Of a DNA stretch of 59,681 bases, positions 810-52,124 are shown piece after piece. A model generated the notes under the pieces. That model did not search any database. It was not told the origin of the DNA and saw only the letters and a list, made by a program, of their open reading frames with translations. Both the position numbers and the translations under genes were made by a program. The DNA comes from an uncultured bacterium (GTDB taxonomy: Bacteria > Macinerneyibacteriota > Macinerneyibacteria > Macinerneyibacteriales > CAYRFE01): contig CAZIJP010000002.1 in assembly GCA_964539615.1 (NCBI GenBank), positions 1 through 59,681 on the forward strand, written 5' to 3'. Within the stretch, counting starts at the first letter, position 1; the number at the start of each line of letters is the position of its first letter.

Positions 810-818
810 GGCGGAAGT

Positions 819-2026: not shown

Positions 2027-2050
2027 ACAACGAAGAAAAGGGGAATTTGA

Positions 2051-4588: not shown

Positions 4589-4603
4589 GGAGATAGTGAT
4601 AGA

Positions 4604-4966: not shown

Positions 4967-4979
4967 AGGGGGGTTTTTC

Positions 4980-6644: not shown

Positions 6645-6659
6645 TGAAAGGCATCAAAA

Positions 6660-10079: not shown

Positions 10080-10088
10080 GGAGTTTTT

Positions 10089-24615: not shown

Positions 24616-25422
24616 ATGGTGCATATTTTTATAAATGAACATATGAAGGAAGTAGCGGATTCATCGACGGTCTTTTCAGTTCGTGATTCCGTAAAACCCG
24701 ATGCTGATATCGTGATCTATAACGGCTTTCCTATCGCACAAAATTGCCAGTTACGGGATAATGATACGCTTGTGTTCATCAAACGTGGTGAGATGCCGCA
24801 TCCTGATGAATTGGATGCGTTATTGACCGCACGGCACACGCCGTTTGTGCATGAGAAATTAAAACATGCAATTGTCGGGATAGCCGGATGTGGCGGATTG
24901 GGTTCTACTATTGCCGTCGCACTTGCACGAAGCGGGATCGGCTCGTTGATACTTGCGGATTTTGACGTGGTTGAACCGTCAAATCTCAACCGGCAGCAGT
25001 TTTTTATCGATCAAATCGGGATGCATAAAGTTGAAGCCCTGCGGCAAACCATTCAGCGTGTCAATCCGAATGTGACGATACGGTTATTTCAGGGAATGGT
25101 TACAGAAGATAATTGTGCCGACGTTTTCGCCGGTGCCTCGGTGATCGTTGAAGCGTTTGATAAAGCGGAATACAAATCCCGACTTGTTAATCATATATTG
25201 ACAACCATGCCCGGTATCTTTATAGTAGCGGGGAACGGTATGGCAGGATATGGGCCGAATGATGCTATCGTCACGCAAAAGATCGGTTCGCATTTTTTTG
25301 TATGCGGAGACGGAGTATCTGAGGCACAGCCCGGGAGCGGTCTAATGGCTCCGCGGGTCGGTATTTGCGCTCATGAGCAGGCCAATCAGGTTTTGAGGAT
25401 CATTTTAGGAGAGGATGTATGA
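24616..25422 (+). CDS. thiF: ThiF/MoeB-type E1-like adenylyltransferase with an N-terminal ThiS-like (beta-grasp) domain
   Basis: 268 aa. The N-terminal roughly 60 aa are ThiS-like: 'IFINEHMKEVADSSTVFSVRD...IVIYNGFPIAQNCQLRDNDTLVFIKRG'. The rest is ThiF-like: 'IVGIAGCGGLGSTIAVALARSGIGSLILADFDVVEPSNLNRQ'. Confidence 0.8.
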   Translation: MVHIFINEHMKEVADSSTVFSVRDSVKPDADIVIYNGFPIAQNCQLRDNDTLVFIKRGEMPHPDELDALLTARHTPFVHEKLKHAIVGIAGCGGLGSTIAVALARSGIGSLILADFDVVEPSNLNRQQFFIDQIGMHKVEALRQTIQRVNPNVTIRLFQGMVTEDNCADVFAGASVIVEAFDKAEYKSRLVNHILTTMPGIFIVAGNGMAGYGPNDAIVTQKIGSHFFVCGDGVSEAQPGSGLMAPRVGICAHEQANQVLRIILGEDV

Positions 25423-31119: not shown

Positions 31120-31144
31120 TGTAAATTTAAATCGATTTCTTTCG

Positions 31145-31171
31145 GGGAAGGCTTTAAGCCTTCCCTTTTTT
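31145..31171 (+). terminator. Rho-independent terminator
   Basis: Perfect 8-bp stem GGGAAGGC/GCCTTCCC with a TTTAA loop, followed by T6. Confidence 0.8.
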
Positions 31172-34563: not shown

Positions 34564-35808
34564 ATGACGTTGTCATTAATTATTATAGCCGGTTGTGCCG
34601 CGGTTTTGTTATTTCTTACTCGGTTTGTTGAAATTGCCTTTGTCAGTGTTGAGTATGATGATATCAAGGATATTGTTCTTGGCAATAGATTTATCAAGAC
34701 GATGTTTTTGCAATGGTTCAAGCACGCCAATATTTTATTGGCTTCATTGCAGTTTATTCGTTTTGCAATAGAAGTAAGCGCCATCTGTATTGCTTGGCAG
34801 CATGAGAACATTTATTCTGTAATCATTGTTTTTGTTTTTATCATTGTTATCGGCGAGTATGTCCCTCGTACCTTGGCTATGCAGAAGGGGATCAGGCATA
34901 CGTATTACATTATCGTACCGCTGTACTATTTTTGCCTTATCATTTCTCCTATTATACGATTGCTGATGTTGCCTGCTGACCTGATCATTAAAATGTTCGG
35001 CGGGACTATGGTTATTAATATCCCGTATTTAACAAAGATCGAGGAGCAGGTCTTGACCAATGTGCTGACTGAGGAAAGTGATAAACAAGAAAGCGAAATG
35101 CTTGCGAGCGTTTTAGAATTCAAGGAAACGATTGTTCGGGAGATCATGATCCCCCGTATCGATATCATTGCGATTTCAGCCGATTGCACCTGGGAAGAAT
35201 TAAATACCATTATTCAAGAGAATGGTCATTCCCGTATGCCGGTGTATGATGATCGTTTGGACAATCTTATCGGTGTGCTATATGTAAAGGATCTGATCGG
35301 AATTGATCCGAAAAAAATAACAATAAGATCAATACTTCATGAGCCTTATTTTGTTCCGGAAACTAAAAAGATCAATTTGCTTTTACGAGATTTTCAATCA
35401 AAGCATGTTCATATGGCTTTCGTTGTAGATGAGTATGGCGGTTTGGTCGGATTGGCCACAATCGAAGATGTGCTTGAAGAGATCGTCGGTGAGATCGAAG
35501 ACGAATACGATGAAGAGGAAGCAATGTTCACTCGTATCAATGATAAGCAGTTCATCGTTTCTCCTAAAATGACACTTGATGAATTTTCCGATGTATTTCA
35601 CATTGATATACATCATTATATAACCGATGATGATGAGACATTTGAAACGATCGCAGGTTTCATTATTTCGCTCTTGGGCAACCTTCCCCGGAAGGGTTAT
35701 GAACATGCATTTGATGATTTTAAATTGAGAGTGCTCGATGTAGACAAACGGCGCATCATAAAGATAATGCTAACGCTTAACGCGCCGCTTGATAAAGGAG
35801 AGAAATAA
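34564..35808 (+). CDS. CNNM/TlyC/CorC-family protein (DUF21 membrane domain + CBS pair + CorC_HlyC domain)
   Basis: N-terminal TM helices. CBS region 'REIMIPRIDIIAI...HSRMPVYDDRLDNLIGVLYVKDLI'. 'VDEYGGLVGLATIEDVLEEIVGEIEDEYD'. ATG 34564 lies 10 nt after GGAGGG. Confidence 0.88.
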   Translation: MTLSLIIIAGCAAVLLFLTRFVEIAFVSVEYDDIKDIVLGNRFIKTMFLQWFKHANILLASLQFIRFAIEVSAICIAWQHENIYSVIIVFVFIIVIGEYVPRTLAMQKGIRHTYYIIVPLYYFCLIISPIIRLLMLPADLIIKMFGGTMVINIPYLTKIEEQVLTNVLTEESDKQESEMLASVLEFKETIVREIMIPRIDIIAISADCTWEELNTIIQENGHSRMPVYDDRLDNLIGVLYVKDLIGIDPKKITIRSILHEPYFVPETKKINLLLRDFQSKHVHMAFVVDEYGGLVGLATIEDVLEEIVGEIEDEYDEEEAMFTRINDKQFIVSPKMTLDEFSDVFHIDIHHYITDDDETFETIAGFIISLLGNLPRKGYEHAFDDFKLRVLDVDKRRIIKIMLTLNAPLDKGEK

Positions 35809-36683
35809 TGAAATCCGGATTTATCGCTGTGATCGGAGCTCCTAATGTAGGAAAATCAAGTTTTGTAAATTTGATGGTCGGCAAAAAAGTGACTATTGTC
35901 TCACCTCGCCCGCAAACAACACGGGACAGATTGTTCGGCGTTGCCCATTGGAAGGAAACTGATACCCAGGTGGTCTTCGTTGATACACCGGGTATTTTTA
36001 AGCCGAAAATCGCTTTGGATAAATATATGGTAGGCTCGGCCACACAGTCGTTGGACGGAGTTGAGGGTATTCTTTTCATGATCGATGCTGCAAAAGGGTT
36101 TACCGAAAAAGACCGTGACGCATGGCAACGCATCAAACCTGATCCCGAAAAAACGATTATAGTCATTAATAAGACCGACTTAGTAAAAAACAAAAACGAA
36201 TTACTTGAAATGATCTCTTTAGCGAGCAATGAGACGGGAATTAAGACCATCTTTCCCATATCTGTATTGAAACTTACACAAACCGATGAATTAAAACGGT
36301 ATATTTGCGATATACTGCCTGATGGTCCTGCGTTTTTCCCGGCTGACATGTTGACTGATAAGGATCGGCGGTATATAATCAGGGAGCTTATACGAGAGGC
36401 AGTTATTTTTAATGTATTTGATGAATTGCCATATATGATAGCTGTTTTGATCGAAGAACTGCAAGGCGCTCATATTCGAGCAACATTGATTTGCGAGCGT
36501 GAATCACAGAAAGGAATACTGATCGGTAGTCAAGGAACAATGATAAAGAACATTGGTATAGCCGCTCGTAAAAAAATTGAGCATATGTTCGGCTCGACAG
36601 TATTTTTAGAACTGACCGTACAAGTGGAAAAAAATTGGCGTAAAAACGACAGAATTTTAAAAGAACTTGGATATGAGCAATAA
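35808..36683 (+). CDS. era: GTPase Era
   Basis: 291 aa. G1 'GAPNVGKSS', G3 'DTPG', G4 'NKTD', and a C-terminal KH domain 'ERESQKGILIGSQGTMIKNIG'. TAATG overlap with the preceding gene. Confidence 0.95.
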   Translation: MKSGFIAVIGAPNVGKSSFVNLMVGKKVTIVSPRPQTTRDRLFGVAHWKETDTQVVFVDTPGIFKPKIALDKYMVGSATQSLDGVEGILFMIDAAKGFTEKDRDAWQRIKPDPEKTIIVINKTDLVKNKNELLEMISLASNETGIKTIFPISVLKLTQTDELKRYICDILPDGPAFFPADMLTDKDRRYIIRELIREAVIFNVFDELPYMIAVLIEELQGAHIRATLICERESQKGILIGSQGTMIKNIGIAARKKIEHMFGSTVFLELTVQVEKNWRKNDRILKELGYEQ

Positions 36684-36697: not shown

Positions 36698-39600
36698 GTG
36701 GAAAAACCGGATAAGATACTTAAAAAGGTCAATAAATATCTTGCATCCAGTCAATTTACAGAGGCCATGTACGCATTGCAGGATGCACTCATGGAGGACA
36801 GCCGCTCCGAAGAACTTTTATGGAAACTTGTAGAAGTCTATGGTTTTATGAAAGATGATGCGAATGCGGTCAATACAATCAGAAAAATAATCTCAAATGA
36901 TCAGAGTTCCGCTGCAAAGATCATGGCGCTCAAGTATCTGCAAAATGATTTCCCGACTTTTTTTCCACGGTCAAAATATGCCGACATGCTGGAATTTGAG
37001 ATACATATGGAGCGCAAAGATGTTGTGAAGGCCATTGAATCGCTTCGTCGGGTAACCGGTCATGATATTGAACAGTTTTCAACACTATATCTTGATAAAC
37101 TTGATAAATTGAAAAAAATTCACGGCGAAGAAAAGACGGTTCAGGATAATGTGCTATTGGCATATCAGATTTTCGGTGTTTATTATGCTATGGAGAAATT
37201 TGATGAAGCTTTTGACATGCTGAATCAGATCGCTGTAAAAAGTTTGAATGAAGTCCCAGTAATTGAGAAGATACTAATAAATTTAGAGGCAAAAGATACG
37301 TCAAATCCCTATCTGTACTATCATTTGGGACAATTACTCGTTCGACAGAATAAGGTATCTGAAGCAATTGCCCAATTTACAAAAGGTGTTGAGGCAAATA
37401 CAGCCGTAGCGCAATATATTTTACCGTTATGTGAACCCTTATATGAGCAAAATAAAACGGATGCTAAATTCGTGCGTTTTTTTGCGTTGCTCCATTATCA
37501 TTGCGGGCAGTTTGAGAAAACATTTACATATTTTGATGTTTTCGCTACCCTCGACACAAGCGATGCAGCAGTAAATTCCCTGAAAGAACTCTACGAAGAT
37601 ATCTATATTAAGGTAGGCGGGAAAACCTTTGTGCTTCTGGCAATGGTGAAATTGTTGATACGATTAGGTGATTTTGAGGGAGCTCTGCGTAAATTCTTAC
37701 AAATAAGAAGTTTCGATAATGCGGAGATCGAGACGATCGGTTTGGAACTATTGGGAAAGGTAAAGGAAAAAGGCGATCTTAACAAATTACTGGCAGAATT
37801 TTATATTTCAAAAGGTCCTGTTGAAAAAGCAGTTCATTATTTAGGTGAATTATTTGCTTCAGATGCAAGTTACAGTGAGTTTATCACGGAAAAAATGAAA
37901 AAAATGGAAGTAGGCGACAATAAGGAATATCTCAAGTTATTGGGAGATATCAGCGTCAGCCGTAATGATCTCAAAGAAGCTTTTACCTACTATAAAAAAC
38001 TTGAAGAAGTTTTTCCGGAAGAAGCGGATTCAATTATAGCAGGGTATGAAAATCTTTTGCTGAAATCAGAAAAATCGATCAAGCTCCGTCAATTATTGAT
38101 TGATCTGTACATGAAATATGAACATTATAAAAAAGCATTGAAAATGCTCGGCGAAGTGTTGATGATTGATCCTTCCATTTATCCAAGTATTTATCCGTAT
38201 TTTAATACGATTCTCGAGAAAAACCCCGATGTTGCTGATAAAGTAAAAGGACTTTTGGATATTATATCTAAAGGGTTGCCTAATAATCCATACTTGCTGT
38301 TTAATATGGGATGTTATTATTTTTTACAAGGTAATAGTGCTGCAGTAATTGACAGTTTTAAAATTGTCATGAATTCTAGTGATCCTTTATTAAAAAAAAG
38401 TGCTACTGAAATATTTTTTAAACTTTTGGAAAAATTTCCGCATGACCTTGAATTGCGCTGGGTTATTGCCGACACATTATACAATAACAAATTGTGGCAT
38501 GAACTGATCAGCCATCTCAATACGCTTTATTTAGATTTTCCGGCAGAAAACCCTAAGATATTAGCGTCACTTCATACGATATTTGAAAAATTTTATGCAG
38601 AAGACGATATTATTACATTATTTTCAAAAATTGCTTTTGAACAGAATCGCCTTGATGAGTTATCACACTTTATTGAAGATGCCGAAAAAATAAAGCCACA
38701 TTCATCGGCGGTATTTACAGCGCTTGCAGAACTTCATTTTAAAAAAGGGAGTATTAAGGATGTTGTAAAAGATTTTCAAAAGTTATTGAAATACGGAATT
38801 CAAGAAGACATAGCTAGAATCATTTCCATAGTGGGCGAAGTGCGTTCTGTTGTGAAACCGAATCCCGGCGTGTATTATGTACTTGGGGCAATGTATCAAA
38901 AAAACGGCAGTTTCAGCGCTGCGCTGGAATTGTATCGTAAGGTAATCGGGATCGAACGTGAAAAAGATGATCTTATCGAAAAACAATTGAGCGATATGGC
39001 ACGTGAAGCAACGAATGATCCGCAGCCGAAGATCACACTCGGCGTACTCTATATGAAATACGCACGGTATGATGAAGCAATAGTGATGTTTAATCAGGCC
39101 GTTCAATTGGATGAGGCATTGATCGGCGCTATCGTAGCACACTATGAGGAAGTTGCCAGAAAAGCTCCAGATAGAGTGGACTTTAAAATTGAGCTCGCCA
39201 GAATTTATGCATTGATAAATAAGCCTGAAGACTCTTACTCACTTTTGACATCCGTTGAGCCGGGAGACGAATTATACCTCAAATATCTTCAGACATTAAA
39301 AACTCTTACCGAGCAGTGCCCTGCATTCTCGCGGGGCCATCATCGTATGGCAGACCTTTTATGGGACGGTGAGAAATTTACCGAAAGCCTTCCGTTTTAT
39401 ACAACTGTTCTGACCGTTGCGCCGAAAGAAGAAATTGCTGAGATTACACATAAGATTTCAGAAAAAGTATTTGCCATCTCTTTGCGTGCTGCCGCTGAAT
39501 TGTATTGTGATTGTATGACTGCATCAGGCACCCTAGAGGAGATCGTGGCTGCATATAAACGCTTATTCGAACAATTCGGTGATGAAAGTGCTCCATATCT

Positions 39601-40492
39601 GGACAGTAAATTATCCGAATTTGAAAAAGGACAGAATGATGAAGCTTTTGCGGATCTTTTGATTGATATTGCATTATTGCGAAATCAATATGATAAAGCT
39701 CTAAACGTCATCAAATTGAATTATGATTATTTTTCCCATAACAGAGAGAAATTATTATACGCTATTGAGACCGTTTGGGAAAACAATAAGACTCGGGAGG
39801 ATATTTTCGACACCTATGTTACCATTCTTATGGAAAGTAATGAAATGACAAAAATGACAGAAGTTCTTCCGCTTTTTGAGTCGTTAAATATTTCAAATGA
39901 AAAAAAAGCACAGTATGCTTTGCTTGCAGCACAATTAGCTGTGCATGATGATCGTGATGTATCTCGCGAGTGGTATGCAAAAGCACGCGGTTATTTGCCA
40001 TCCGTTAAGAAACTGTATAAATTGATTCATGATGCTGAAAAAAGTATGTATACGGTTTGGATCACGTATTACGAATTACATAAAACCCCTGAGAATATGT
40101 TGAAACTTGTGCAATTGTATTTAAAAAATGAAGATTATGCTCAAGCCAGTGTAGTACTCAATGAGATCGTCACCGAGGATGCAACAGTTATAAGAAAGAA
40201 ACAGTATTTGCGTATTAAAATTTTGTACTTCCAAAAAGATTATGCCGGCGTGCTTGCGTTGGCGCCGTATGTTTCTATCGACATATGGAATATTCAAGAT
40301 GACGAAAAAGAAATAGTACATTGTTTTATTTCCTCTTCACGAGAATTACGATTGTTTGCCACTGCACGAGCCTATGTTCATTGTTTAAAGGGAAGCATTC
40401 TTGATGAAGTTTACGATACAATTCAGAAACAGATCAGCGCCGATGAGGCACGTTATGCGAAAGACACAAACGGTTACTCAATTACTTTTTGA
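36698..40492 (+). CDS. Very large cytoplasmic all-alpha TPR-like solenoid protein; function unknown
   Basis: 1264-aa ORF with GTG start 36698, 5 nt after AAGGAG. Degenerate TPR-like helical hairpins run throughout, for example 'PYLYYHLGQLLVRQNKVSEAIAQFTKGVEAN', 'PGVYYVLGAMYQKNGSFSAALELYRKVIGI' and 'KITLGVLYMKYARYDEAIVMFNQAVQLD'. No TM segment or signal peptide. Confidence 0.8.
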   Translation: MEKPDKILKKVNKYLASSQFTEAMYALQDALMEDSRSEELLWKLVEVYGFMKDDANAVNTIRKIISNDQSSAAKIMALKYLQNDFPTFFPRSKYADMLEFEIHMERKDVVKAIESLRRVTGHDIEQFSTLYLDKLDKLKKIHGEEKTVQDNVLLAYQIFGVYYAMEKFDEAFDMLNQIAVKSLNEVPVIEKILINLEAKDTSNPYLYYHLGQLLVRQNKVSEAIAQFTKGVEANTAVAQYILPLCEPLYEQNKTDAKFVRFFALLHYHCGQFEKTFTYFDVFATLDTSDAAVNSLKELYEDIYIKVGGKTFVLLAMVKLLIRLGDFEGALRKFLQIRSFDNAEIETIGLELLGKVKEKGDLNKLLAEFYISKGPVEKAVHYLGELFASDASYSEFITEKMKKMEVGDNKEYLKLLGDISVSRNDLKEAFTYYKKLEEVFPEEADSIIAGYENLLLKSEKSIKLRQLLIDLYMKYEHYKKALKMLGEVLMIDPSIYPSIYPYFNTILEKNPDVADKVKGLLDIISKGLPNNPYLLFNMGCYYFLQGNSAAVIDSFKIVMNSSDPLLKKSATEIFFKLLEKFPHDLELRWVIADTLYNNKLWHELISHLNTLYLDFPAENPKILASLHTIFEKFYAEDDIITLFSKIAFEQNRLDELSHFIEDAEKIKPHSSAVFTALAELHFKKGSIKDVVKDFQKLLKYGIQEDIARIISIVGEVRSVVKPNPGVYYVLGAMYQKNGSFSAALELYRKVIGIEREKDDLIEKQLSDMAREATNDPQPKITLGVLYMKYARYDEAIVMFNQAVQLDEALIGAIVAHYEEVARKAPDRVDFKIELARIYALINKPEDSYSLLTSVEPGDELYLKYLQTLKTLTEQCPAFSRGHHRMADLLWDGEKFTESLPFYTTVLTVAPKEEIAEITHKISEKVFAISLRAAAELYCDCMTASGTLEEIVAAYKRLFEQFGDESAPYLDSKLSEFEKGQNDEAFADLLIDIALLRNQYDKALNVIKLNYDYFSHNREKLLYAIETVWENNKTREDIFDTYVTILMESNEMTKMTEVLPLFESLNISNEKKAQYALLAAQLAVHDDRDVSREWYAKARGYLPSVKKLYKLIHDAEKSMYTVWITYYELHKTPENMLKLVQLYLKNEDYAQASVVLNEIVTEDATVIRKKQYLRIKILYFQKDYAGVLALAPYVSIDIWNIQDDEKEIVHCFISSSRELRLFATARAYVHCLKGSILDEVYDTIQKQISADEARYAKDTNGYSITF

Positions 40493-40514
40493 TATGAACA
40501 AAGGAGAATGAAGT

Positions 40515-42425
40515 ATGGGAAACATCTGCCCGTTTTTACCCCGAGAAGGAGAAGCATTTCAGAATTGTATTTCCGATAAATGTTTTCTCTATAATAAACC
40601 CGGTAAATCATGTGTTCTCAGCACAGTCGATTTGACCAAGCCGGGGAACATCAAACTTATTCAAGACAGTATTTCCGCATCTTCGCAAAGCACGAATGAT
40701 CTGATAAAAAAAATCGGCGGATTGTTGACAAAAACATCCAAACCGCTTCTTGAGTATATCGATGCTATGAAGAACGGTAAATATATTACCGATACGGTAA
40801 CCGCATTACAGCAATCGTTACAGTCTAATGAAACAGGAACAGTGGTTTCATCAGCAGAAGTTTCGGGAGAATTTGTCCGTATACGCGAAACTGCCGAAAA
40901 TATTCTTGAGACGGTCAATCGTATCGCATCTCACCATACATCCTTTCAGCAAAGCGCAGCCGTGTCTTCAATAACTGCTGATTATAAAACATTGATCGAA
41001 CGTGTTGACAATTCTGTTGAAGGTGCGACTCCCGTCAAGCCTGAAGCTGCAGGAACACCCGCTCCATCGAATGAAGCTCTGGCAGCATTGGTCAGTGAGA
41101 TCAATGATGTAAATAAGACAGCATTTAAAGGACTGTTCAATCTTATTAAGTCGACGATGGAAGAACAGAACGCATTATTAAGATCGCTTAAAGATGATAT
41201 TGCCACATCAAAAGCATCCGGGAGTTCCACGGTACAAGCATCAGATGACACTGTTGCTTCATCCGCAGCCTTGGCGAAATTTGAGCCGATCATAGAAGCA
41301 AGTCAAAAGGTCTATACGGCTGTCATGGATGTTTCCAATGCTCTCTTTGAGACCAAAGAAGAGATCATGGGTATACACAATAATCTTCGTGATTTTCACA
41401 CAGAATCTCAAACGCAGATCAGAACTTTTATGGAAAATGTACATGAATGGATGCAGACGCAGGGGGGTGCAAAAGAATCAACCGGAATAGCGGAGCTCCA
41501 TGAAACGATACGGCAAATGATAAAGAATTTTGGTACGCTTGGGGTAAACATTGCGCAGATCGAACAAAAAATATTGGATAAACAAGAAGAAACGTCAATG
41601 AACAGTGCAAAGATCGGTAAGGCAGCGATCGAGACCATCGCAAAGATAGGCGAGCACGTTGCATCCGTCTCACAGACCACTACCGACGGTAATGCGCAGT
41701 TAATTCAAAAATTGGATGCATTAACTTCAAAACTCGACGATTTGATTGTAATGCAAAAAGATACTGCCGTACTAGCTGAACGTTTTGCTTCAGGGCAGGA
41801 GAAAACTAATGAGATACTGCAATCGCTGGCAGTAAGTCTTGAGGGTTTTGCAAACGGACAAGATGTATTCAGAACCGATATATCAACTACTGTCGGTAAG
41901 ATGCAGGGTGTACTCGAATTGCAGGAAAGATACATGCAGCAGGAAGAGAGCGGCTATAAACTCAGAAAAGCTGAGGAATTGGCTGTTACTGCCGTTGCTT
42001 TGATGCTGGACAAAGATCTGAACGGCGCGATTCAAAAATCAAAAGAAGCCATTGAATTGAATCCGAAATTGTGGGGAGCATACAACACGCTCGGCATGGC
42101 CCTTGCGGAATCGGGCGAGTCAAAAAAGGCTGTTGAAGTATTTAAGAAATTAATAAATCAAAACGCTGACTTTTCAGAAGCGTATTATAATCTCGGCGTA
42201 TTACTGGCCCGTGATAAGGAATTTGAAAAAGCGATCGGGTTATATAAGTTATCCATTGAAAAGAACACGACATTTGCAAAAGCATATGTGGCTTTAGGGG
42301 ATGCTTTGGAAGAGACCGGCGCCACCGACGGAGCCTTAAAAGCATGGGAACGCGCAGTCCAAATGGACCCGACCCTTGATGAAATCCGTGAAAAGGTATC
42401 AAAATACAGAGAGATCAATTCCTAA
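40515..42425 (+). CDS. Protein with an N-terminal Cys4 motif, a roughly 450-aa helical/coiled-coil region and C-terminal TPR repeats; function unknown
   Basis: 636 aa. 'MGNICPFLPREGEAFQNCISDKCFLYNKPGKSC' gives C5, C18, C23 and C33. The middle is long and A/S/T/Q/E-rich and helical. C-terminal TPRs: 'WGAYNTLGMALAESGESKKAVEVFKKLINQNADFSEAYYNLGVLLARDKEFEKAIGLYKLSIEKN'. Confidence 0.8.
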   Translation: MGNICPFLPREGEAFQNCISDKCFLYNKPGKSCVLSTVDLTKPGNIKLIQDSISASSQSTNDLIKKIGGLLTKTSKPLLEYIDAMKNGKYITDTVTALQQSLQSNETGTVVSSAEVSGEFVRIRETAENILETVNRIASHHTSFQQSAAVSSITADYKTLIERVDNSVEGATPVKPEAAGTPAPSNEALAALVSEINDVNKTAFKGLFNLIKSTMEEQNALLRSLKDDIATSKASGSSTVQASDDTVASSAALAKFEPIIEASQKVYTAVMDVSNALFETKEEIMGIHNNLRDFHTESQTQIRTFMENVHEWMQTQGGAKESTGIAELHETIRQMIKNFGTLGVNIAQIEQKILDKQEETSMNSAKIGKAAIETIAKIGEHVASVSQTTTDGNAQLIQKLDALTSKLDDLIVMQKDTAVLAERFASGQEKTNEILQSLAVSLEGFANGQDVFRTDISTTVGKMQGVLELQERYMQQEESGYKLRKAEELAVTAVALMLDKDLNGAIQKSKEAIELNPKLWGAYNTLGMALAESGESKKAVEVFKKLINQNADFSEAYYNLGVLLARDKEFEKAIGLYKLSIEKNTTFAKAYVALGDALEETGATDGALKAWERAVQMDPTLDEIREKVSKYREINS

Positions 42426-42433
42426 GGAAATGT

Positions 42434-44629
42434 ATGAAAAAATATAATTTTTCTCAAGAACTTCAAAATATTCTCCAACGTGCAGAGGTTATAGCCGGTG
42501 AAATGAATCATGCTTTTATATTGCCGATCCATTTGCTTGCCGCCTTGATAGAAGCGAAAGATGATAAAGTTGAAAACTGGTTTCATCTGCATAATATCGA
42601 TCCGAAAAAATTACTTGGTGTGACCATGAAAGACCTCGAGGTCATCGAGACACTTCAGGAAGAGAACGAGCTCGAAGTGTCCGAGGCAACTCGTGATGTG
42701 ATGCGTCTTGGAGGAGTAATTGCTATCCAATCAGAAGAGGAAGAGGTTACACCGCTGTATTTACTGATGGCCATATTAGATGAGGCGGATGAGATCATAA
42801 CCAGTATTTTTTCTGCGGTCGGCGTGGAGATCGCCACCTTGGACGATATTCTGTATATCGAAGAATTGAAACGATCCTATGTGGAAGATAAAAGCATGCT
42901 TATGAAAAATGGGGTGAATGTCAGCACGTTGATCGAGAAGAAGCAGGTTATTCCTTTTACAACCGATTGGTCAATAACAGATGATCTGATCGAGATTTTA
43001 TCAAGGGACAACAAAAACGTTCCGGTGATCGTCGGCTCTTTCGGAATTCCCAGAGATGTACTCATTGAAGGATTGGCAGACCGTATCATCAACGGCGATG
43101 TGCCTGAACGTTTGAATTCTACGAACGTAATTCATATCATGATCAATCCGATCATAGCAAACTCAAAAGATGTGAACGATTTTGTCGCAACATTACGCCA
43201 GATGATTTCCGAAGCCGAAAATTATAACAATATCATTTTATACTTCGATGAATTATACCCCGATTTTTATAAAATGGGTACCATTGATATTTTGTTGTTA
43301 TTAAAACCTGCGTTGAGCCGACGCAATATAAAGATCATTGGTTGTTCTGAAAAACCGAACATAAAATCATATATTCAACAGGATATGTTCTTAGACGGTA
43401 AGGTCGAATTGGTTAAGATCCATAAAATATCGGAGACCAAGGCAGCTGTGATCCTGAATAATTACCGCAGTACGCTTGAACAGCTTCATAATGTCAAATT
43501 AAAAAAGATCATTCTCGAATATGCATATTCCACCGTTAAGCGTTACATCAATACTGAACAGTATCTTGAAGAAACGATCAATCTGCTCGATATGGCTGCA
43601 ACACGTGTCAACTTGAAAAATATTAAAAACGGTGAAACTCCCGTTGTTATAAAGAAAACTGATATTGATGAGATCGTTGCGCGTATGATCGGGATACCGC
43701 GATGGAGGGTTTCCCGCGATAAACGGTTCTATGATAAAATTGAAGATCGATTGAAAGAGAAGGTCATAGGTCAAGACGAGGCTTTGAAAAGCGTCGTTGA
43801 TGTAATTAAAATGAAAGAGAATTATTTTAATCTTAATCCATATTTACCGGATGGTATATTTCTCTTTGTCGGCCCTCGCGGAGTAGGAAAAAAAGAATTT
43901 ATCCATAGTCTTGCCGAGATATTATTCGATGACTCAGAACGTGTTTCTTACTTTGATATGAGGCAATTCAAAGATCCGGAGGCTGTGTATGATTTTCTCG
44001 GTTTTCGGGATAAATCAAAAGACGATATTTACCCGTCCATGCTTTCAAATGTTATCAAGGAATATCCGTATTCGATCTTGTTTCTCGATGAGATAAACCA
44101 GGCCTCCCAAGAGGTGCGGGACCTTTTTCTCAACATCTTTAAAACAGGTGTATTTGAGGATAATTTCGGTAATCGGGTATTCTTTAAGGGTATAACTATC
44201 ATCATGACCGTAAAGGCCTATGAAGAACAAAAAAAACAATTGGGATTTATAGCTGGAAACAAAGCCGATTATAATAAAGAAATGATCTATAAAGGCATGG
44301 AGAGTATGCTTGGGACTGAAATGCTCCATTTGATCGATCGCGTTGTTATCTTTACGGAATTGTCCACACAGCATATGCATGAGATCATTAGAAAACGCCT
44401 CGTAGACCGTCTCAATGAAAAATTACCGATAACATGGGTTGTCGAACCGTCTGCAATCGAATTTATAACTGAGGCTATAAATAATGAACCCGAGCGGTTA
44501 CAAGCGCTTGAACGTGTTTTTCAGAAACATATTTTCTCATATCTGGCGATCAATTTTTATAAAGATGATCTGAGTTTTAAAAATAAAATAACTATTAAAT
44601 CTAAAAACGGGGAGTTGCGTTTTGTATGA
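42434..44629 (+). CDS. ClpA/ClpB-like protein with a Clp_N domain and two AAA+ modules carrying degenerate nucleotide-binding motifs
   Basis: 731 aa. Clp_N-like 'FSQELQNILQRAEVIAGEMNHAFILPIHLLAALIE'. The D1 region 'NVPVIVGSFGIPRDVLIEGLADRIINGDVPERL' aligns with Clp '[29 protein letters not shown].L', and 'IILYFDEL' follows. D2 reads 'IFLFVGPRGVGKKEFIHSLAEILF' and 'ILFLDEINQAS'. Confidence 0.8.
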   Translation: MKKYNFSQELQNILQRAEVIAGEMNHAFILPIHLLAALIEAKDDKVENWFHLHNIDPKKLLGVTMKDLEVIETLQEENELEVSEATRDVMRLGGVIAIQSEEEEVTPLYLLMAILDEADEIITSIFSAVGVEIATLDDILYIEELKRSYVEDKSMLMKNGVNVSTLIEKKQVIPFTTDWSITDDLIEILSRDNKNVPVIVGSFGIPRDVLIEGLADRIINGDVPERLNSTNVIHIMINPIIANSKDVNDFVATLRQMISEAENYNNIILYFDELYPDFYKMGTIDILLLLKPALSRRNIKIIGCSEKPNIKSYIQQDMFLDGKVELVKIHKISETKAAVILNNYRSTLEQLHNVKLKKIILEYAYSTVKRYINTEQYLEETINLLDMAATRVNLKNIKNGETPVVIKKTDIDEIVARMIGIPRWRVSRDKRFYDKIEDRLKEKVIGQDEALKSVVDVIKMKENYFNLNPYLPDGIFLFVGPRGVGKKEFIHSLAEILFDDSERVSYFDMRQFKDPEAVYDFLGFRDKSKDDIYPSMLSNVIKEYPYSILFLDEINQASQEVRDLFLNIFKTGVFEDNFGNRVFFKGITIIMTVKAYEEQKKQLGFIAGNKADYNKEMIYKGMESMLGTEMLHLIDRVVIFTELSTQHMHEIIRKRLVDRLNEKLPITWVVEPSAIEFITEAINNEPERLQALERVFQKHIFSYLAINFYKDDLSFKNKITIKSKNGELRFV

Positions 44630-45648
44630 CACCATTGTTTTCAACAAAATCGTATAAGAGGGCACGGATCAATTGGTATTTGATCGCAGGAGTTGTCGTT
44701 GTATTTTTTATCGGGACACTATTGTTATCATGGTACAGACCAATAAAAATTGAAGGCGTTGTATATGTTCAAATTGAAAAAGGCGATACTGGTATTGTTG
44801 TTGTACGCAAACTGCAGCGATCGGGAATACGGCTTTCACCAACCATGTTCCGCTTGTATTACAAAATAATGCCGCATCAGATCAATGCCGGAGATTATTA
44901 TTTAAAATCTCCGCTATCAATAGCAAAACTCGTTGATATATTATCGAAAGGTCACGAACAAGGCGAGAAAGTGACCGTTCCTGAAGGGTGGACATATAAA
45001 AAGATCACTGAACTTCTCGAAGAGAAAGGTATAATTACCGATCGTCAGCAATTCATGGTGTTATTTGATAATACCGAGTTCATCCGCTCATTAGGTATCA
45101 ATGCTCCAACGTTAGAAGGGTATGTGTACCCGGACACCTATTATTTATCAAAAAATATGAAGCCGGAGGATATAGTAAAGCGCATGTATGAGCAGTTGCA
45201 AGTGAAGATAGCAGCTGCAGGTCTTGAAAAATCAATAAAGGAATCAAAGTTTACATTCCACGAGTTGATGACATTGGCCTCGATCGTTGAATGGGAGTAT
45301 CAGGCTGCAGAAGAACAGCCGATAATCGCACAAGTATTTTTAAAACGATTGGAGATCGGCCAGCCGTTAGAAAGCTGTGCGACGGTATTGTATGCTCTCG
45401 GTAAACATAAAAATTACTTATTATACAGCGATCTTGAAGTGAAATCCCCATTCAATACTTACAAAGTTGCCGGACTGCCGCCTACCCCGATCAATAGTCC
45501 CGGCATAGCATCTATACAAGCGGTATTAAATCCGGCAAAAACCGATTACTTATATTTTATTTCTAAAAATGACGGCACACATTATTTCTCAAAAACTTAT
45601 GAGGAACACCTTCGTGCGCGAAAGCAGTACCCCTCATGGAAAAAATAG
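44626..45648 (+). CDS. mltG: Endolytic murein transglycosylase MltG (YceG family)
   Basis: 340 aa. N-terminal TM 'WYLIAGVVVVFFIGTLLL'. YceG motifs 'LASIVEWEY', 'SPFNTYKVAGLPPTPINSPG', 'YLYFISKNDGTHYFSKTYEEH'. ATGA overlap with the upstream gene. Confidence 0.9.
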   Translation: MTPLFSTKSYKRARINWYLIAGVVVVFFIGTLLLSWYRPIKIEGVVYVQIEKGDTGIVVVRKLQRSGIRLSPTMFRLYYKIMPHQINAGDYYLKSPLSIAKLVDILSKGHEQGEKVTVPEGWTYKKITELLEEKGIITDRQQFMVLFDNTEFIRSLGINAPTLEGYVYPDTYYLSKNMKPEDIVKRMYEQLQVKIAAAGLEKSIKESKFTFHELMTLASIVEWEYQAAEEQPIIAQVFLKRLEIGQPLESCATVLYALGKHKNYLLYSDLEVKSPFNTYKVAGLPPTPINSPGIASIQAVLNPAKTDYLYFISKNDGTHYFSKTYEEHLRARKQYPSWKK

Positions 45649-47110: not shown

Positions 47111-50100
47111 ATGTTATATCTTTTGGGGAGTGTTTTTGTTAGTTTCTTGTATGTTATGTTTCCGTTTGATTTTTTCCTGATAGTTTATGCAATATTCAGT
47201 ACTGTAGCGGTAATTCGTAAGGCTACTCGGTCGATGGGTGTATTGTTGACTCTAACCGTTCTATTATTTTCCATTATGCAGTATCACTTGCGTAATAATG
47301 AACAGTTTGTTGAAGATCGGTTATTCGAGTCAAAAAACGAAATTGCTCGTGAATATGAATTATTGAAAGAAAAAATCAATAATAACTGGAAAATCTTAAT
47401 TTCCAAGAATCGTTCTATGACCGATGATATCGGTTATCGGATATACTCGTCGGACGGGGCTTTGAGCTCATGGTCGGGAAGTGAGGATTTTGCACCATCT
47501 GAATTGTATCCGTTAACGCCAACGTTAGTATATTATAATAACGATATCAGTTTCCGTTTTTCTGTTATGGAACGAGGGAAAACATATTATATCCGGCATT
47601 ATATTACAGCCATGTATCCGTCACAAGATTCAAAGTCAATATGGCTTAAAACTTTTGAACGAAATAATGTTGTAGATATTTCATGGTATGTCACTCGCGG
47701 ACAGATGTATATCAATAAAGAAAGGATTTCTTTTGATGATATAAATATTGGAGAACATATTTTCTTCCGCGATACAAATGTTTTGTATACGAGGATAGAC
47801 GCCTCATTATTGCTAAAAATTACCTCTCCCAGCTTGAATACATATCTGAAAACATCAAGGAAAATGTTTTTCGGTATAACAGTGTTGATTTACTCCGTTG
47901 CCGTATTTTTACTGACGCACGGTCGAAAAAGGGCATTTCATGTTTCAACGGTTGCTTGTGCGATCGCGGCCGCTTTACCGCATCCGATAGTGATTATAGT
48001 ATTGCTTATATTGATATTGATCATAAATCAAGCTTATTTTAAACAAGAATTCGATCTTACACAGACCGAACCGATAAATTATGTGTTTGTTATCATGACC
48101 CTTACCCCTGTTGCTGCCGCTGCGTTACATATACTATCGGCTCATACGCTTATTGGCGCTTTTGTATTTGGCTTTTATTCCAGCGATTTTTTTGTATATC
48201 TTCTTGTCGGAATAGTTTTATTTCTATTAAGCTTTTTTTCAATGCCGCATGCATCAAAAGCTTTGCGTGAGGGATTATCGATAGCTTTTTTCATCGCCTC
48301 TCTTTGGATCTCACCTATAGTATTCTTATTTATTGTTATATCAGGCGTATTTGTATATTATTGGGGAAAAAAAACGTCGAAAAAATACATATTTTCAGTG
48401 ATGTTTTTTTTATTTACTGCATTTTTACTATTTTATCCTATATTGATCGTTCATAATTCGGAAATATCGAAAAAAAACATATTAAAACTGACTGCAAGAA
48501 TTGAACAAGAAGTGCAAAAAACAATAGATAAAAGCGTTGCTTTACTGAATAAGGATGAACAGGTTGTCTGGACATTGAATGAACGGATTCATTATGACGA
48601 TAATAATTTTGCGTTTTACAAATGGTCCCAAACGCCGTTAGCCGGAAAGAAATATCCTAATTTTTTATCTTTTCAGGACAATGACGGTGTTGCAATCAGC
48701 TATTTTGCTTATAAATGCGTCCCTGTACAAACGAATTTTATATCTACCTCAACAGTTACCGATACCGGCGATTTTTGGGTCAGAAAAATTCCAGTATTTA
48801 ATAATAATAAGGTGATCGGGGCTATCGTGATCGGGATAGCAAAAGATTTTTGGAAGTATGACCCTTCGTTTATCCCATTATTGTTTACCCGGAAAAATGC
48901 CGGTCTAGTTCTTTTTTCTTCAGATGCCGGTCAACTTCCGTCAACGCATCTCAGTGCACGATTTCTAAAAGATGATGATGATATTCTAACGGTATGGGTC
49001 AAAAAAGATATATTTATCATATCACGAACGGTGCTGATTTTTATCGGCATTTTAGCGGTGTTTGCCCTGTTTATGAGAACAACAACACGTACAAATCACG
49101 TGACCATTGACTTTCGATTGCGTATGATGATCATTGTTGTATTGTTCATGTCTGTACCTTTTGTATTCAGTTCTCTGCTTATAATAAACAATTATTCTTC
49201 ATCAGTAAAAAATATGGTCAATAAAGAGATGACCTCCGCTAAGGTTCGATTGGCTGAACAAATACAGGCAATCATTAAACAAAATGATCTTTCAAAGGCA
49301 TCTGGAATCACCGGCGCGTTAAAGATCGGCAATACTGCTTCGACGTGGTCGATCTATAAAGGCCCGAAGCGAATTGCATCATTTAATGAGGATAGTTACC
49401 GGTTAAATCTTCAGCGGGATTATTTACATGAATCATTGATCAAACAGATCATGTTAAAAGGTGAGGTATATGATTATTCGTTCAGTACAGGAACAGCAAG
49501 TATACTCTATACGGATCCTGAGACAAAATTGATAATAAAACTTTCTGTCAGTCTTGACAAAATGCAGCATGATGATTTTATAGATACCGTTATCGTGTTC
49601 ATGGTTATTAATATTATTTTGATCATTGGGATCATGAAAACATTCAGTTCATTCATTATGAATCTTATAAAACCGATGAATGAAATGATAATTGCTACAA
49701 AAGAAATATCGTATGGAGATTTTTCTAAGGAAATTGTAACACGTTCCCGTATTCCTGAGATAAATGTTCTTCTTGTCAATTTCAATACGATGGTTGCGAA
49801 ATTGAATGCATTTAAAAATAATCTCAATGAGACGCAATCATTCTTACGCGAGATCATAGGATCATTACCGGTTGCTGCTATGATCTATGATAAAAAACGC
49901 GGAATTACACTCTATAATAAAGATATGGAAGGGATAGCGCCTACTATTTCTGTGAATAAACAACCACAAGATGTTCTAAATTTTGTAATAGCGTTTTATC
50001 AGTCACAAATAACCGAATTACGGTACAACGGAAGAATATATCGTGTTACAATTCGTCATTTCAAATATGGTTATATACTTTTAGCAACCGATATAACTCG

Positions 50101-50827
50101 GTTCGTTGTGGCTGAAAAAGCTCAAGTATGGTTTGATTTGGCGCAAGAGATTGCTCACGAACTGAAAAACCCGTTGATGCCACTTGAATTTTCAGTCAAC
50201 AGACTGGAAAAAACACTATCGGGTATGAATCTTGATGAACATGTACGATCATCGGTCGATGAATTGTTGACGGTAATTCGTGAGGAAACTCATGCGATAT
50301 CCCTATTAGTTCAAGACTTTAAAGAAATGACCCAACGCAGTGAGGCAGATACTAATCCCCTGACGATCGCTGATGAACTTGATGTTGTCATTGCAGGATT
50401 CAAGCCGTATCCGATCTTCACGCATTTGTCAGATACGCTTCCTGTTGTGTATTTTCCCGTTAATAAATTTCATATGATCATTAAAAATATACTGAAAAAT
50501 GCTATCGAAGCCGATATTCAGGCAAAACCGATTGAAATTGCAGCATATTATGATACACTGTTGCCTGAATGGGAAACAGGCGAATTGGACCGTTCAAAAC
50601 ATTATGTTATCATCTCATTCCGTGATCAAGCCGGAGGGATACATTCCGAGTTGCGGGATAAATTGTTTGAACCGTTTTATTCGTCAAAAAAAGGCGGGAG
50701 CGGCTTGGGTTTATATATCGTGAAAAAAATAATGCTTGAATACGGTAACGACATTGTAGTAAATGTCCGGGAGAACATCGGGACTGATATCTATTTGATC
50801 TTTCAATCGGAGGATAATGAACAATAA
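47111..50827 (+). CDS. Very large polytopic sensor histidine kinase (NtrY-like C-terminal module)
   Basis: 1238 aa with at least 10 hydrophobic helices and three roughly 130-190-aa loops in the first 830 aa or so. HAMP-like 'IKPMNEMIIATKEISYGDFSKEI', H-box 'IAHELKNPLMPLEFSVNRL', N-box 'NILKNAIEA', G-boxes 'DQAGGI' and 'GGSGLGLYIVKKIM'. Confidence 0.88.
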   Translation: MLYLLGSVFVSFLYVMFPFDFFLIVYAIFSTVAVIRKATRSMGVLLTLTVLLFSIMQYHLRNNEQFVEDRLFESKNEIAREYELLKEKINNNWKILISKNRSMTDDIGYRIYSSDGALSSWSGSEDFAPSELYPLTPTLVYYNNDISFRFSVMERGKTYYIRHYITAMYPSQDSKSIWLKTFERNNVVDISWYVTRGQMYINKERISFDDINIGEHIFFRDTNVLYTRIDASLLLKITSPSLNTYLKTSRKMFFGITVLIYSVAVFLLTHGRKRAFHVSTVACAIAAALPHPIVIIVLLILILIINQAYFKQEFDLTQTEPINYVFVIMTLTPVAAAALHILSAHTLIGAFVFGFYSSDFFVYLLVGIVLFLLSFFSMPHASKALREGLSIAFFIASLWISPIVFLFIVISGVFVYYWGKKTSKKYIFSVMFFLFTAFLLFYPILIVHNSEISKKNILKLTARIEQEVQKTIDKSVALLNKDEQVVWTLNERIHYDDNNFAFYKWSQTPLAGKKYPNFLSFQDNDGVAISYFAYKCVPVQTNFISTSTVTDTGDFWVRKIPVFNNNKVIGAIVIGIAKDFWKYDPSFIPLLFTRKNAGLVLFSSDAGQLPSTHLSARFLKDDDDILTVWVKKDIFIISRTVLIFIGILAVFALFMRTTTRTNHVTIDFRLRMMIIVVLFMSVPFVFSSLLIINNYSSSVKNMVNKEMTSAKVRLAEQIQAIIKQNDLSKASGITGALKIGNTASTWSIYKGPKRIASFNEDSYRLNLQRDYLHESLIKQIMLKGEVYDYSFSTGTASILYTDPETKLIIKLSVSLDKMQHDDFIDTVIVFMVINIILIIGIMKTFSSFIMNLIKPMNEMIIATKEISYGDFSKEIVTRSRIPEINVLLVNFNTMVAKLNAFKNNLNETQSFLREIIGSLPVAAMIYDKKRGITLYNKDMEGIAPTISVNKQPQDVLNFVIAFYQSQITELRYNGRIYRVTIRHFKYGYILLATDITRFVVAEKAQVWFDLAQEIAHELKNPLMPLEFSVNRLEKTLSGMNLDEHVRSSVDELLTVIREETHAISLLVQDFKEMTQRSEADTNPLTIADELDVVIAGFKPYPIFTHLSDTLPVVYFPVNKFHMIIKNILKNAIEADIQAKPIEIAAYYDTLLPEWETGELDRSKHYVIISFRDQAGGIHSELRDKLFEPFYSSKKGGSGLGLYIVKKIMLEYGNDIVVNVRENIGTDIYLIFQSEDNEQ

Positions 50828-52124
50828 TAAAGCGGTTATTCTGGTCATTGATGATGAGAAAAATATTCGAAAAATGATCGGCATGGTAATCGCTGACATG
50901 GGACATGAATGCCGGGAAGCCGCTCATCCTTTGGAGGCGTTTGATCTGCTTGAAAAAGAAAAAGTCGATATAATTCTGTGTGATATAAAAATGCCGTATA
51001 TGGATGGTATGGAATGCCTGAAAAAACTGAAAACTACCTATAAAGATATTCCGGTTATTATGCTTACCGGACACGGAAGCATACAGACCGCTGTTGAAGC
51101 ATTAAAAATCGGTGCATGCGATTTTATGGAAAAAACATCTGATGAAGACGTTTTGAAAGAAAAAGTGGCAAATGCGATCAAATCGCGCGAATGGTCTTTG
51201 GTCAACTATACCGATGATATATTTGACGTTATCACCGATAAAAAAACGGTAAAAATCTTGCAGGAAGCGATTAAGATAGCGAAGACCGATGCATCGGTTT
51301 TACTGCTTGGTGAGAATGGTGTCGGTAAAGAGGTGCTCGCACGGCTTATTCATAAACATTCGTCGTATTCGTGCGGAGAATTTGTGGCGGTCAATTGCGG
51401 AGCAGTCCCTGAATCGCTTTTTGAATCGGAAATGATCGGTTTTGAAAAAGGCGCTTTTACGGGTGCTGATACAATGAAAAAGGGATTTTTTGAACGTGCA
51501 CATAAAGGTACGCTATTTCTTGATGAGATCACCGATATGCCGATGCGAAATCAGGCTTCTATACTCAGGATTTTGCAAGAAAAAACAATAATGCGTCTTG
51601 GTGGGAAAGAATCTGTTCTTACTGATTTCAGACTGATAACTGCGACAAATAAACCCTTGCCGATGCTGGCCGCTCAGGGTGTATTTCGGGAGGACCTTTA
51701 TTATCGCATTAATGTTGTCCAGCTAACATTACCGCCATTACGCGAGAGAAAAAAGGATATTATGCCGCTGGTATACCATTTCCTTTCGACATTATGTAAG
51801 CAATATTCTTTGGACCAGAAATCAATTCATCCTGAGCTGGAAAAATATCTTCTTACTTATCCATGGCCCGGGAATATCAGAGAGTTGCGTAATTTTATCG
51901 AACGTCTTCTGATAATTACAGAAGGATCATATTTATATTATGATGACGCGCATTTTATGCATACTTCATTGAATCTTGATTCGTTTCTTGCATCACAGGA
52001 GAAAGAACTTTTATCAAGGATTGTTTCCCTCACAGGAAATAATATCGAAAGAAGTGCGCGGATACTCGGTTTGAAAATTGATGATCTTGAAAAACGATTG
52101 GAGAACTATGAGATCGTTCTTTAG
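50817..52124 (+). CDS. Sigma54-dependent response regulator (NtrC/NtrX family)
   Basis: 435 aa. REC 'VILVIDDE...IILCDIKMPYMDG'. AAA+ 'GENGVGKEVLARLIH', 'EKGAFTGAD' (GAFTGA), 'LFLDEI', 'ATNK', 'WPGNIRELRN'. C-terminal HTH 'NNIERSARILGL'. Overlaps the kinase gene by 11 nt. Confidence 0.92.
   Translation: MNNNKAVILVIDDEKNIRKMIGMVIADMGHECREAAHPLEAFDLLEKEKVDIILCDIKMPYMDGMECLKKLKTTYKDIPVIMLTGHGSIQTAVEALKIGACDFMEKTSDEDVLKEKVANAIKSREWSLVNYTDDIFDVITDKKTVKILQEAIKIAKTDASVLLLGENGVGKEVLARLIHKHSSYSCGEFVAVNCGAVPESLFESEMIGFEKGAFTGADTMKKGFFERAHKGTLFLDEITDMPMRNQASILRILQEKTIMRLGGKESVLTDFRLITATNKPLPMLAAQGVFREDLYYRINVVQLTLPPLRERKKDIMPLVYHFLSTLCKQYSLDQKSIHPELEKYLLTYPWPGNIRELRNFIERLLIITEGSYLYYDDAHFMHTSLNLDSFLASQEKELLSRIVSLTGNNIERSARILGLKIDDLEKRLENYEIVL

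Follow-up and report, generated by a model that had tools for sequence, protein, structure and literature searches.

Three contiguous genes lying between era and mltG in the genome of an uncultured bacterium encode two tetratricopeptide repeat (TPR) proteins, here called P1 and P2, and a third protein, P3, which to judge from its sequence is probably a new non-motor offshoot of the Clp/Hsp100 chaperones, a family otherwise known as textbook ATP-driven threading machines. The DNA analysed (contig CAZIJP010000002.1 of GenBank assembly GCA_964539615.1, positions 1–59681; hereafter the window) is 59,681 nucleotides (nt) long, and the three genes occupy positions 36698–44629. The triad is confined to one uncultured candidate phylum, Candidatus Mcinerneyibacteriota. 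The reading we favour, with a probability of about 0.45, is that P1–P3 form a phylum-specific cytoplasmic module around P3 acting as a non-threading, Clp-derived pseudo-unfoldase, possibly linked to ClpP. The genes and their direct neighbours are as follows.

era, 35808–36683, forward strand: 5' flanking gene in the same direction (NCBIfam NF000908, 329 bits against a cutoff of 237).
P1, 36698–40492, forward strand: open reading frame (ORF) of 1264 amino acids (aa) with a GTG start and an AAGGAG Shine–Dalgarno motif; predicted cytoplasmic TPR/helical-repeat solenoid.
P2, 40515–42425, forward strand: ORF of 636 aa, in which a Cys4 head is followed by a heptad-periodic spacer and, at the C terminus, four TPRs.
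P3, 42434–44629, forward strand: ORF of 731 aa; Clp/Hsp100-derived double AAA+ protein with degenerate catalytic and pore-loop motifs.
mltG, 44626–45648, forward strand: 3' flanking gene overlapping P3 (NCBIfam TIGR00247, 245 bits against a cutoff of 103).

The block amounts to 2631 codons, with 14 nt separating era from P1, 22 nt between P1 and P2, 8 nt between P2 and P3 and a 4-nt ATGA shared by P3 and mltG. The ORFs are exactly those described in the original prediction, which had been made from the DNA letters alone. An AGGAG/AAGGA Shine–Dalgarno-like motif lies 5' of P1, P2 and P3 alike. Two further claims of that prediction, that the products are cytoplasmic and that none can be assigned to a characterized family, are supported: a cytoplasmic location is reasonable because no transmembrane-like segment (maximum Kyte–Doolittle 19-residue mean < 1.6) and no signal-like N terminus were found in any of the three, and all three stay below the cutoffs of every characterized family.

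P3 is a member of the Clp/Hsp100 class I AAA+ superfamily with a real Clp fold. It matches the Pfam families Clp_N (in two stretches), AAA_lid_9 and AAA_2, and an AlphaFold2 model built with 14 orthologues (predicted local distance difference test, pLDDT, 83) gave as its top Foldseek matches ClpC/ClpP complexes, ClpB, Hsp104 and ClpA, with E values down to 4e-46. The domain order is a double Clp_N, a first (D1) and a second (D2) AAA+ module and lid domains. The architecture is ClpA-like, since the M domain is absent, and the linker between D1 and D2 counts 5–8 residues in the P3 family versus 42–151 in ClpC-type and approximately 124 in ClpB-type proteins. None of the established families accommodates the protein. 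As a ClpA equivalog it scores only 275 bits (TIGR02639, cutoff 993) and as a ClpB equivalog 290 bits (TIGR03346, cutoff 1232), without the long coiled-coil M domain of the latter; ClpC was rejected for want of a UVR-like M domain or UVR Pfam match and for the short linker, and the type VI secretion protein ClpV/TssH on both score (TIGR03345, 255 bits, cutoff 885) and context, the neighbours being housekeeping genes. A part in anti-phage defence was likewise rejected, as PADLOC gave P3 only a DolB match (45 bits over the generic AAA+ core), P1 a 16-bit match and P2 nothing. Identity of the P3 family to ClpB-type and ClpC-type proteins is 25–28%, while these two types share 50% with each other (65% in D1). 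Members of the P3 family are 52% identical to one another overall and 48% in the N domain, which is conserved nearly as well as the ATPase modules, and on these alignments the family is a long branch yet under purifying selection.

Motif states were tabulated for 14 P3 family members against 104 canonical Clp proteins (25 ClpC-type, 79 ClpB-type), in which every residue listed below is conserved in 104/104 (the D1 pore position as Tyr or Phe).

D1 Walker A remnant, 43034–43057, forward strand: GSFGIPRD, canonical GEPGVGKT.
D2 Walker A variant, 43871–43894, forward strand: GPRGVGKK, canonical GPTGVGKT.
D1 Walker A Gly206 (third Gly), canonical Gly: Gly in 0/14.
D1 Walker A Lys207, canonical Lys: Lys in 11/14 and Arg in 3/14, the window copy having Arg.
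D1 Walker A Thr208, canonical Thr: Thr in 1/14.
D1 pore-loop position 246 (KYR), canonical Tyr/Phe: Asp or Glu in 14/14.
D1 sensor-1 Thr306, canonical Thr: Thr in 0/14.
D1 Arg322 and Arg323, canonical Arg at both: Arg in 0/14 and 1/14 respectively.
D2 Walker A Thr487, canonical Thr: Lys in 14/14.
D2 pore-loop Tyr528 (GYVG), canonical Tyr: Ser, Ala or Asn in 14/14.
D2 sensor-1 Asn594, canonical Asn: Lys in 14/14.
D2 Arg finger Arg633, canonical Arg: Arg in 0/14.

Among the features expected of a functional unfoldase, P3 lacks a Walker A motif of the form GxxGxGK[ST], the Arg fingers, sensor-1 and aromatic pore loops, and has kept Walker B (hhhhDE). The loss of key catalytic residues that had been predicted is therefore wider than claimed, reaching both pore loops, the Arg fingers and both sensor-1 positions. 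Walker B is invariant in D1 (ILYFDE, with D272 and E273 in 14/14) and well kept in D2 (ILFL(D/E)E, with the final Glu, E553, in 14/14); the D2 Walker A Lys486 is found in 14/14 and the D2 sensor-2 Arg in 10/14 members. From this pattern of substitutions it seems probable that P3 is not a canonical motor. Nucleotide binding at D2 may nevertheless persist, because the D2 Walker A Lys and the Walker B motifs are retained, and the same residues make the earlier description of P3 as nucleotide-insensitive an overstatement.

A further feature, overlooked in the original prediction, lies in D2.

KKQ-LGF motif, 44231–44248, forward strand: takes the place of the loop tripeptide, IGL in ClpA and VGF in ClpC, that docks onto ClpP.

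ClpA and ClpC dock into ClpP through these tripeptides, and equivalent LGF loops have been described for ClpC1 in the literature. In the P3 family K600, K601, Q602, G604 and F605 are invariant, L603 is present in 13/14 members and the surrounding segment MTVKAY-E-KKKQ-LGF is almost invariant. HMMER aligned KKQLGFI of P3 with RKSIGLI of Escherichia coli ClpA and NKYVGFN of Bacillus subtilis ClpC; in the canonical set, G-F is found here only in the 25 ClpC-type proteins, the 79 ClpB-type proteins showing a gap. The lowest-pLDDT segment of the P3 model (residues 609–611) directly follows LGF, consistent with a position on a flexible loop, so that P3 carries what we looked for in a ClpP partner of the ClpA, ClpC, ClpX and ClpE kind, i.e. 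an (I/L/V)-G-(F/L) tripeptide on a predicted flexible loop of the last AAA+ module. Its retention points towards ClpP-linked proteostasis over a generic platform, and we regard actual docking of P3 on ClpP as possible but doubtful. Less probable still is the specific proposal that P3 is a ClpP cap independent of ATP hydrolysis, which would gate, block or tether ClpP under the control of the P2 Cys4 sensor and the P1 platform; the ring architecture, the adaptor-binding N domain and the LGF loops would then be all that P3 has kept of a former unfoldase. ATP-independent proteasome activators offer a loose analogy. As far as we know, the ClpP regulators that act without a motor are small molecules such as acyldepsipeptides (ADEPs); if the proposal were true, P3 would do the same as a protein.

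The same retained features could instead mark P3 as an ATP-driven unfoldase that is still active though unconventional, and that forms a new class within Clp much as ClpI does, with P1 and P2 as adaptors and with substrates delivered to ClpP via LGF. Intact Walker B motifs in both rings, the invariant D2 Walker A Lys, the LGF kept at the docking position and the conserved N domain all suit such an enzyme, as does the nearly invariant Tyr533-Pro534-Ser535 just after the canonical D2 pore Tyr. ClpI of Actinomycetota (PMC10149685) is a precedent for a lineage-restricted Clp class. Set against these points, the Arg fingers and sensor-1 are lost and the P-loop Thr is found in 0/14 members in D2 and 1/14 in D1, all of these residues being present in 104/104 canonical Clp proteins; the tip of the predicted D2 hairpin (residues 527–530) is polar and not conserved; and ClpI, unlike P3, is described as having intact ATPase and translocation motifs (PMC10149685). 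We consider an unconventional unfoldase unlikely.

P2 combines a short cysteine-containing head with a long spacer and a C-terminal TPR domain.

P2 head (residues 1–36), 40515–40622, forward strand: CPFL-x9-C-x4-C-x9-C, with C5, C18, C23 and C33.
P2 central spacer, 40632–41954, forward strand: poorly conserved, length-variable and heptad-periodic.
P2 LIKKIG motif, where the helical region starts, 40701–40718, forward strand: L63, K65, I67 and G68 invariant in 9 sequences.
P2 C-terminal TPR domain of about four repeats, 41970–42404, forward strand: Pfam matches over residues 486–630.

The predicted Cys4 arrangement is real, all four head cysteines being invariant in 10/10 orthologues, and these invariant cysteines are what suggests that the head may bind metal (Zn or Fe–S). 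Searches with 9 orthologues gave no relevant Pfam match for the head even at E <= 10, no PDB sequence matched it, and it satisfies no curated zinc-finger or Fe–S domain model; a resemblance to DUF1540-type motifs (C-x4-C-x(8–9)-C) was dropped on the same Pfam result. Against 1.84 billion representative proteins the head profile returned only orthologues, apart from a few matches treated as spurious (P0141, P0147 and P0148), all of them low-complexity proteins with repeats and a likeness to eukaryotic sequences. P2 orthologues differ in length, from 502 to 715 aa, owing to their variable central region. This spacer, for which no PDB or Pfam match was found, is a probable coiled coil or helical stalk: in 10/10 orthologues the hydrophobicity at a/d positions is 0.56–0.67, versus 0.38–0.42 ± 0.03 in shuffled sequences, by a crude heptad score computed between residue 41 and the point 150 residues short of the C terminus. 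A conserved Q-x2-Y-x3-E motif lies between the spacer and the TPRs, which are the best-conserved part of P2, occur nowhere else in the protein and match TPR_1, TPR_2 (63 bits), TPR_11 (60 bits) and TPR_17. In most orthologues the TPRs are followed by an acidic tail (DGDGDDEEI, ELGEEEE and others) that is absent from the window copy.

P1 matches many Pfam TPR families, all generic (e.g. TPR_19 with 107 bits and TPR_2 with 81 bits), and profile searches retrieved only in-lineage orthologues and generic TPR proteins. Its orthologues are 1251–1268 aa long and colinear, with almost no insertions or deletions over 1275 alignment columns, despite an identity of only 24–30% across most of the phylum (24–54% overall); as length is kept at such low identity, the protein would suit a rigid solenoid platform of fixed length. 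Assignment of P1 or P2 to PrsT, LapB, MamA, PilW, SgmX, YbgF or FlcA was rejected, scores being three-fold or more below the NCBIfam cutoffs (e.g. MamA, 59 versus 200; PrsT, 55 versus 312), and the likeness to large TPR scaffolds such as SgmX, MamA, PilW/PilF and LapB is limited to generic TPR repeats.

Two distant P1-like TPR proteins of similar length were also found. One (P0136, 1247 aa, in the region 517–5122 of locus L018, GCA_015486655.1) is colinear with the P1 profile at 17% identity (hhalign probability 99.6%) and may be a distant P1 analogue in another lineage; the next gene encodes an acidic low-complexity protein without a Cys4 head, and the 5-kb contig ends before any Clp-like gene could appear. 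The other (P0137, approximately 1246 aa) was rejected as a triad member since its neighbourhood, a SPOR–TPR protein and a major facilitator superfamily transporter, is unrelated. The triad was seen in neither of these two contigs.

A protein search with P3 recovered approximately 16 orthologue clusters at 42–78% identity, scoring at least 388 bits even for fragments, after which scores drop to genuine ClpB and ClpC at approximately 250 bits and 25–29% identity. A scan of 185,579 species, each represented by one genome, yielded 10 orthologous loci and one canonical Clp locus, and the P3 family spans only about ten known species. Two of the 10 loci carry the name Candidatus Mcinerneyibacterium or Mcinerneyibacteriota. 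Among the matches listed from a metagenome scan with the P3 profile, which used generic patterns, there were only canonical Clp relatives, and profile searches detected no orthologues of P1 or P2 outside the lineage. The predicted co-occurrence of the three genes is confirmed: the order era, P1, P2, P3, mltG is kept in every related locus long enough to judge, with junctions of 9–27 nt gaps or 4–17 nt overlaps, and no relative without the triad and no locus with different flanking genes were found among the loci examined. With no such relative, the original prediction's wording that the block was inserted between era and mltG gains no support as an event. Identity to the window copy across relatives is 51–76% for era, 42–77% for P3, 24–54% for P1 and 27–51% for P2. 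Horizontal transfer of the triad was rejected, the G+C content of the block (0.37–0.41) matching that of the surrounding DNA and the triad being universal in the lineage.

Two loci that carry the triad or P3 bear other taxon labels, L014 (DSCS01000062.1) as 'Bacillota bacterium' and L015 (CAZMSH010000117.1) as 'Rikenellaceae', the latter on a contig of only 1.4 kb. We assign both to Mcinerneyibacteriota because synteny and identity group them there, mislabelling or bin contamination being the likely source of the labels. The P3 orthologue is not intact in two metagenome contigs (L024, 6037–8217; L016, 1421–3719), where it is split or interrupted; in L024 the Clp_N part stands as a gene call of its own, of 101 aa. 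Assembly frameshifts, and not biology, are the probable cause.

Such constancy of gene order could also mean that P1–P3 are functionally unrelated neighbours simply held together, for about 12 genes around the triad stand in the same order at all loci and no locus offers different flanks. We nevertheless think this improbable. The triad consists of three contiguous lineage-restricted genes within a string of universal housekeeping genes, the short gaps and overlaps at its junctions suggest translational coupling, and the domains are complementary, with peptide-binding TPRs beside a Clp N domain of the kind that binds adaptors in ClpA and ClpC.

In the module that we favour, P3 would form a ring or hub that binds partners without threading polypeptides, as suggested by the loss of pore aromatics, Arg fingers and sensor-1 and by the compromised P-loops, and it would probably bind nucleotide as a structural or switch ligand. 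Its N domain is the likely contact for the TPR proteins P1 and P2, because the N domain of ClpA and ClpC binds adaptors and is conserved in the P3 family. P2 would act as an elongated, possibly dimeric sensor or adaptor in which a coiled-coil spacer joins a metal- or redox-binding Cys4 head to peptide-binding TPRs, and P1 as a rigid platform of fixed length. If seated on ClpP, P3 could either be its regulatory cap or compete with true unfoldases.

Several points weigh against this module. Gene order is frozen phylum-wide across approximately 20 kb of each locus examined, so that the conserved adjacency of the triad is weak evidence of shared function, and it is from gene context that we infer an interaction of P1–P3. 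The presumed loss of P3 activity is read from the sequence only. Tyr533, nearly invariant and five residues past the canonical D2 pore-loop Tyr position, is off the tip of the predicted D2 hairpin; together with Walker B in both rings and the intact D2 Lys it leaves room for an unconventional motor. The flanks of LGF are invariant in the P3 family and variable in canonical ClpC, and the tripeptide may owe its conservation to something other than ClpP. Lastly, the AlphaFold2 model of P2 residues 1–110 is of low confidence (pLDDT 54).

The triad is probably co-transcribed. The only strong terminator (31144–31166) precedes a 7TM-HD phosphohydrolase gene, which is followed by ybeY, dgkA, corC, era, P1, P2, P3, mltG, a U32 peptidase, a histidine kinase and a sigma-54 regulator, and its position 5' of the 7TM-HD gene makes a long operon starting near 31285 and spanning the triad plausible. 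The original prediction had stated that the block contains neither promoter nor terminator. For terminators this stands, as no convincing intrinsic terminator was found within the block and terminator-like matches were at shuffle level (17 versus 13.7 expected); for promoters it is too firm, given an 11/12 match inside era. Promoter-like matches overall numbered 86 versus 70.6 ± 9.7 expected, only approximately 1.6 standard deviations over the shuffle mean.

Candidate internal promoter TTGACT-17-TATAAT, 36351–36379, forward strand: 11/12 match, the top sigma-70-like match in the scanned 20 kb.

This candidate lies within the 3' part of era, approximately 320 nt upstream of P1, and is identical in two relatives (L005 and L006). 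Whether it is a promoter is uncertain, because its conservation coincides with that of an Era coding motif which it overlaps.

P1–P3 apparently share an operon with ybeY and era, no terminator separating them, and might on that ground take part in ribosome or RNA maturation, for example as a scaffold for assembly factors. This is very unlikely, since the three proteins contain no RNA-binding domain, the ybeY–dgkA–era string is conserved in many phyla without the triad, and no such role is known for proteins of the Clp type.

A cytoplasmic scaffold that organizes the envelope or the type IV pilus machinery, acting with two acidic TPR proteins encoded at 2–10 kb of the window, was the role put forward in the original prediction. 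It draws on mltG lying directly 3' of P3 with a 4-nt overlap, on the presence of pilT, pilM and an SgmX-like TPR protein in the window, and on the frequent service of TPR and coiled-coil proteins as polar scaffolds. The five TPR and Clp proteins do make up about 23% of the window, as had been stated (23.2% by our arithmetic), but the supposed tie among them finds no support: the proteins at 2051–4588 and 6660–10079 match neither P1 nor P2, of which they are not paralogues, show one generic TPR-level match to each other and lie 27 kb away beside pilT. P1–P3 are devoid of domains typical of pili, secretion or the cell wall, and the link to the envelope comes down to the adjacent mltG, in a region where gene order is conserved phylum-wide; the pairing of mltG with a U32 peptidase is a common housekeeping arrangement in other bacteria, as in the B. 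subtilis yrrL–yrrO region. A scaffold for envelope or pilus is accordingly a poor candidate, slightly behind unrelated neighbours and ahead of ribosome maturation.

Compared with known systems, P3 resembles ClpA of the E. coli type in its double Clp_N, D1, D2, short linker and lack of an M domain, and TIGR02639 aligns it in one stretch (residues 7–704); it differs from ClpA in a structure-based identity of only approximately 23–25%, in the replaced pore Tyr, Arg fingers, sensor-1 and P-loop Thr, and in having no clpS gene nearby. The best structural matches (9a66 and 9rai, Foldseek E values 4e-46 to 1e-42) and the (L/V)GF loop recall ClpC of the MecA/ClpC/ClpP system, which relies on adaptors binding its N and M domains (PMC12521514). 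In contrast to ClpC, P3 has no M/UVR domain, its catalytic residues are degenerate and the genes beside it encode TPR proteins instead of MecA, McsA or McsB. The ClpI proteins of Actinomycetota are described as a phylum-restricted double-ring Clp class recognized by sequence analysis, with an M domain besides intact ATPase and translocation motifs and with subclasses with and without LGF (PMC10149685). The P3 family, unlike ClpI, has neither intact motor motifs nor an M domain. Reuse of a ClpB-like scaffold with two nucleotide-binding domains for a non-unfolding role is known from plant SMAX1/D53, which are eukaryotic transcriptional co-repressors. P3 gave weak matches to Pfam NBD_SMAX1 (E value 0.0066) and to SMAX1 in the PDB (E value 7e-4), but its similarity to these proteins is no higher than to any other Clp, and nothing points to shared descent beyond the superfamily.

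Our literature searches found no described bacterial Clp protein with both rings degenerate, no Clp gene clustered with TPR partners, no bacterial member under purifying selection that has lost its hydrolysis and threading residues and kept the ClpP tripeptide, and nothing on this Mcinerneyibacteriota locus. If confirmed, the P3 family would show what a non-motor Clp ring does, be it as scaffold, ClpP gate or competitor, with a bearing on ClpP regulation and on the design of ClpP-targeting antibacterials, while P1 and the P2 Cys4 head, two orphan families, provide signature genes for a candidate phylum that has hardly been studied. The findings would be relevant to researchers on AAA+ proteins and ClpP, their reach being limited by the narrow taxonomic range and the uncultured state of the organisms.

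Throughout the window (1–59681) all credible genes lie on the forward strand and the cumulative GC skew climbs steadily, so that it resembles one very long co-directional housekeeping stretch (ligA, efp, secDF, recJ, fab genes, rnc, three aminoacyl-tRNA synthetases, era and others). In most relatives (L001–L005, at about 3080–3760) a DUF502 gene separates corC from era; it is missing from the window and from L006, the relative closest to it, where corC directly abuts era (35808 in the window). The acidic protein at 2051–4588 (845 aa, net charge –104) has a few N-terminal TPRs. At 5547–6644 lies a PilT-like T2SSE ATPase, followed by the second acidic protein (1139 aa, TPR and coiled coil, net charge –106), whose N terminus resembles SgmX, a regulator of type IV pili in Myxococcus, at 81 bits, far under the cutoff, and then by an AAA_22 protein (10089–10913); the region 5547–10913 may be a separate pilus-regulation module. 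Downstream of the triad are two pairs of histidine kinase and sigma-54 response regulator (47111–52124 and 54723–57585), the second followed by pilM (at 57612). Between the pairs is an 882-aa protein (52078–54726) with no Pfam match here, orthologues of which bear a type IX secretion sorting tail (Por_Secre_tail). A ThiS-like ubiquitin-fold domain and a ThiF-type adenylyltransferase domain are joined in a single ORF at 24616–25422.

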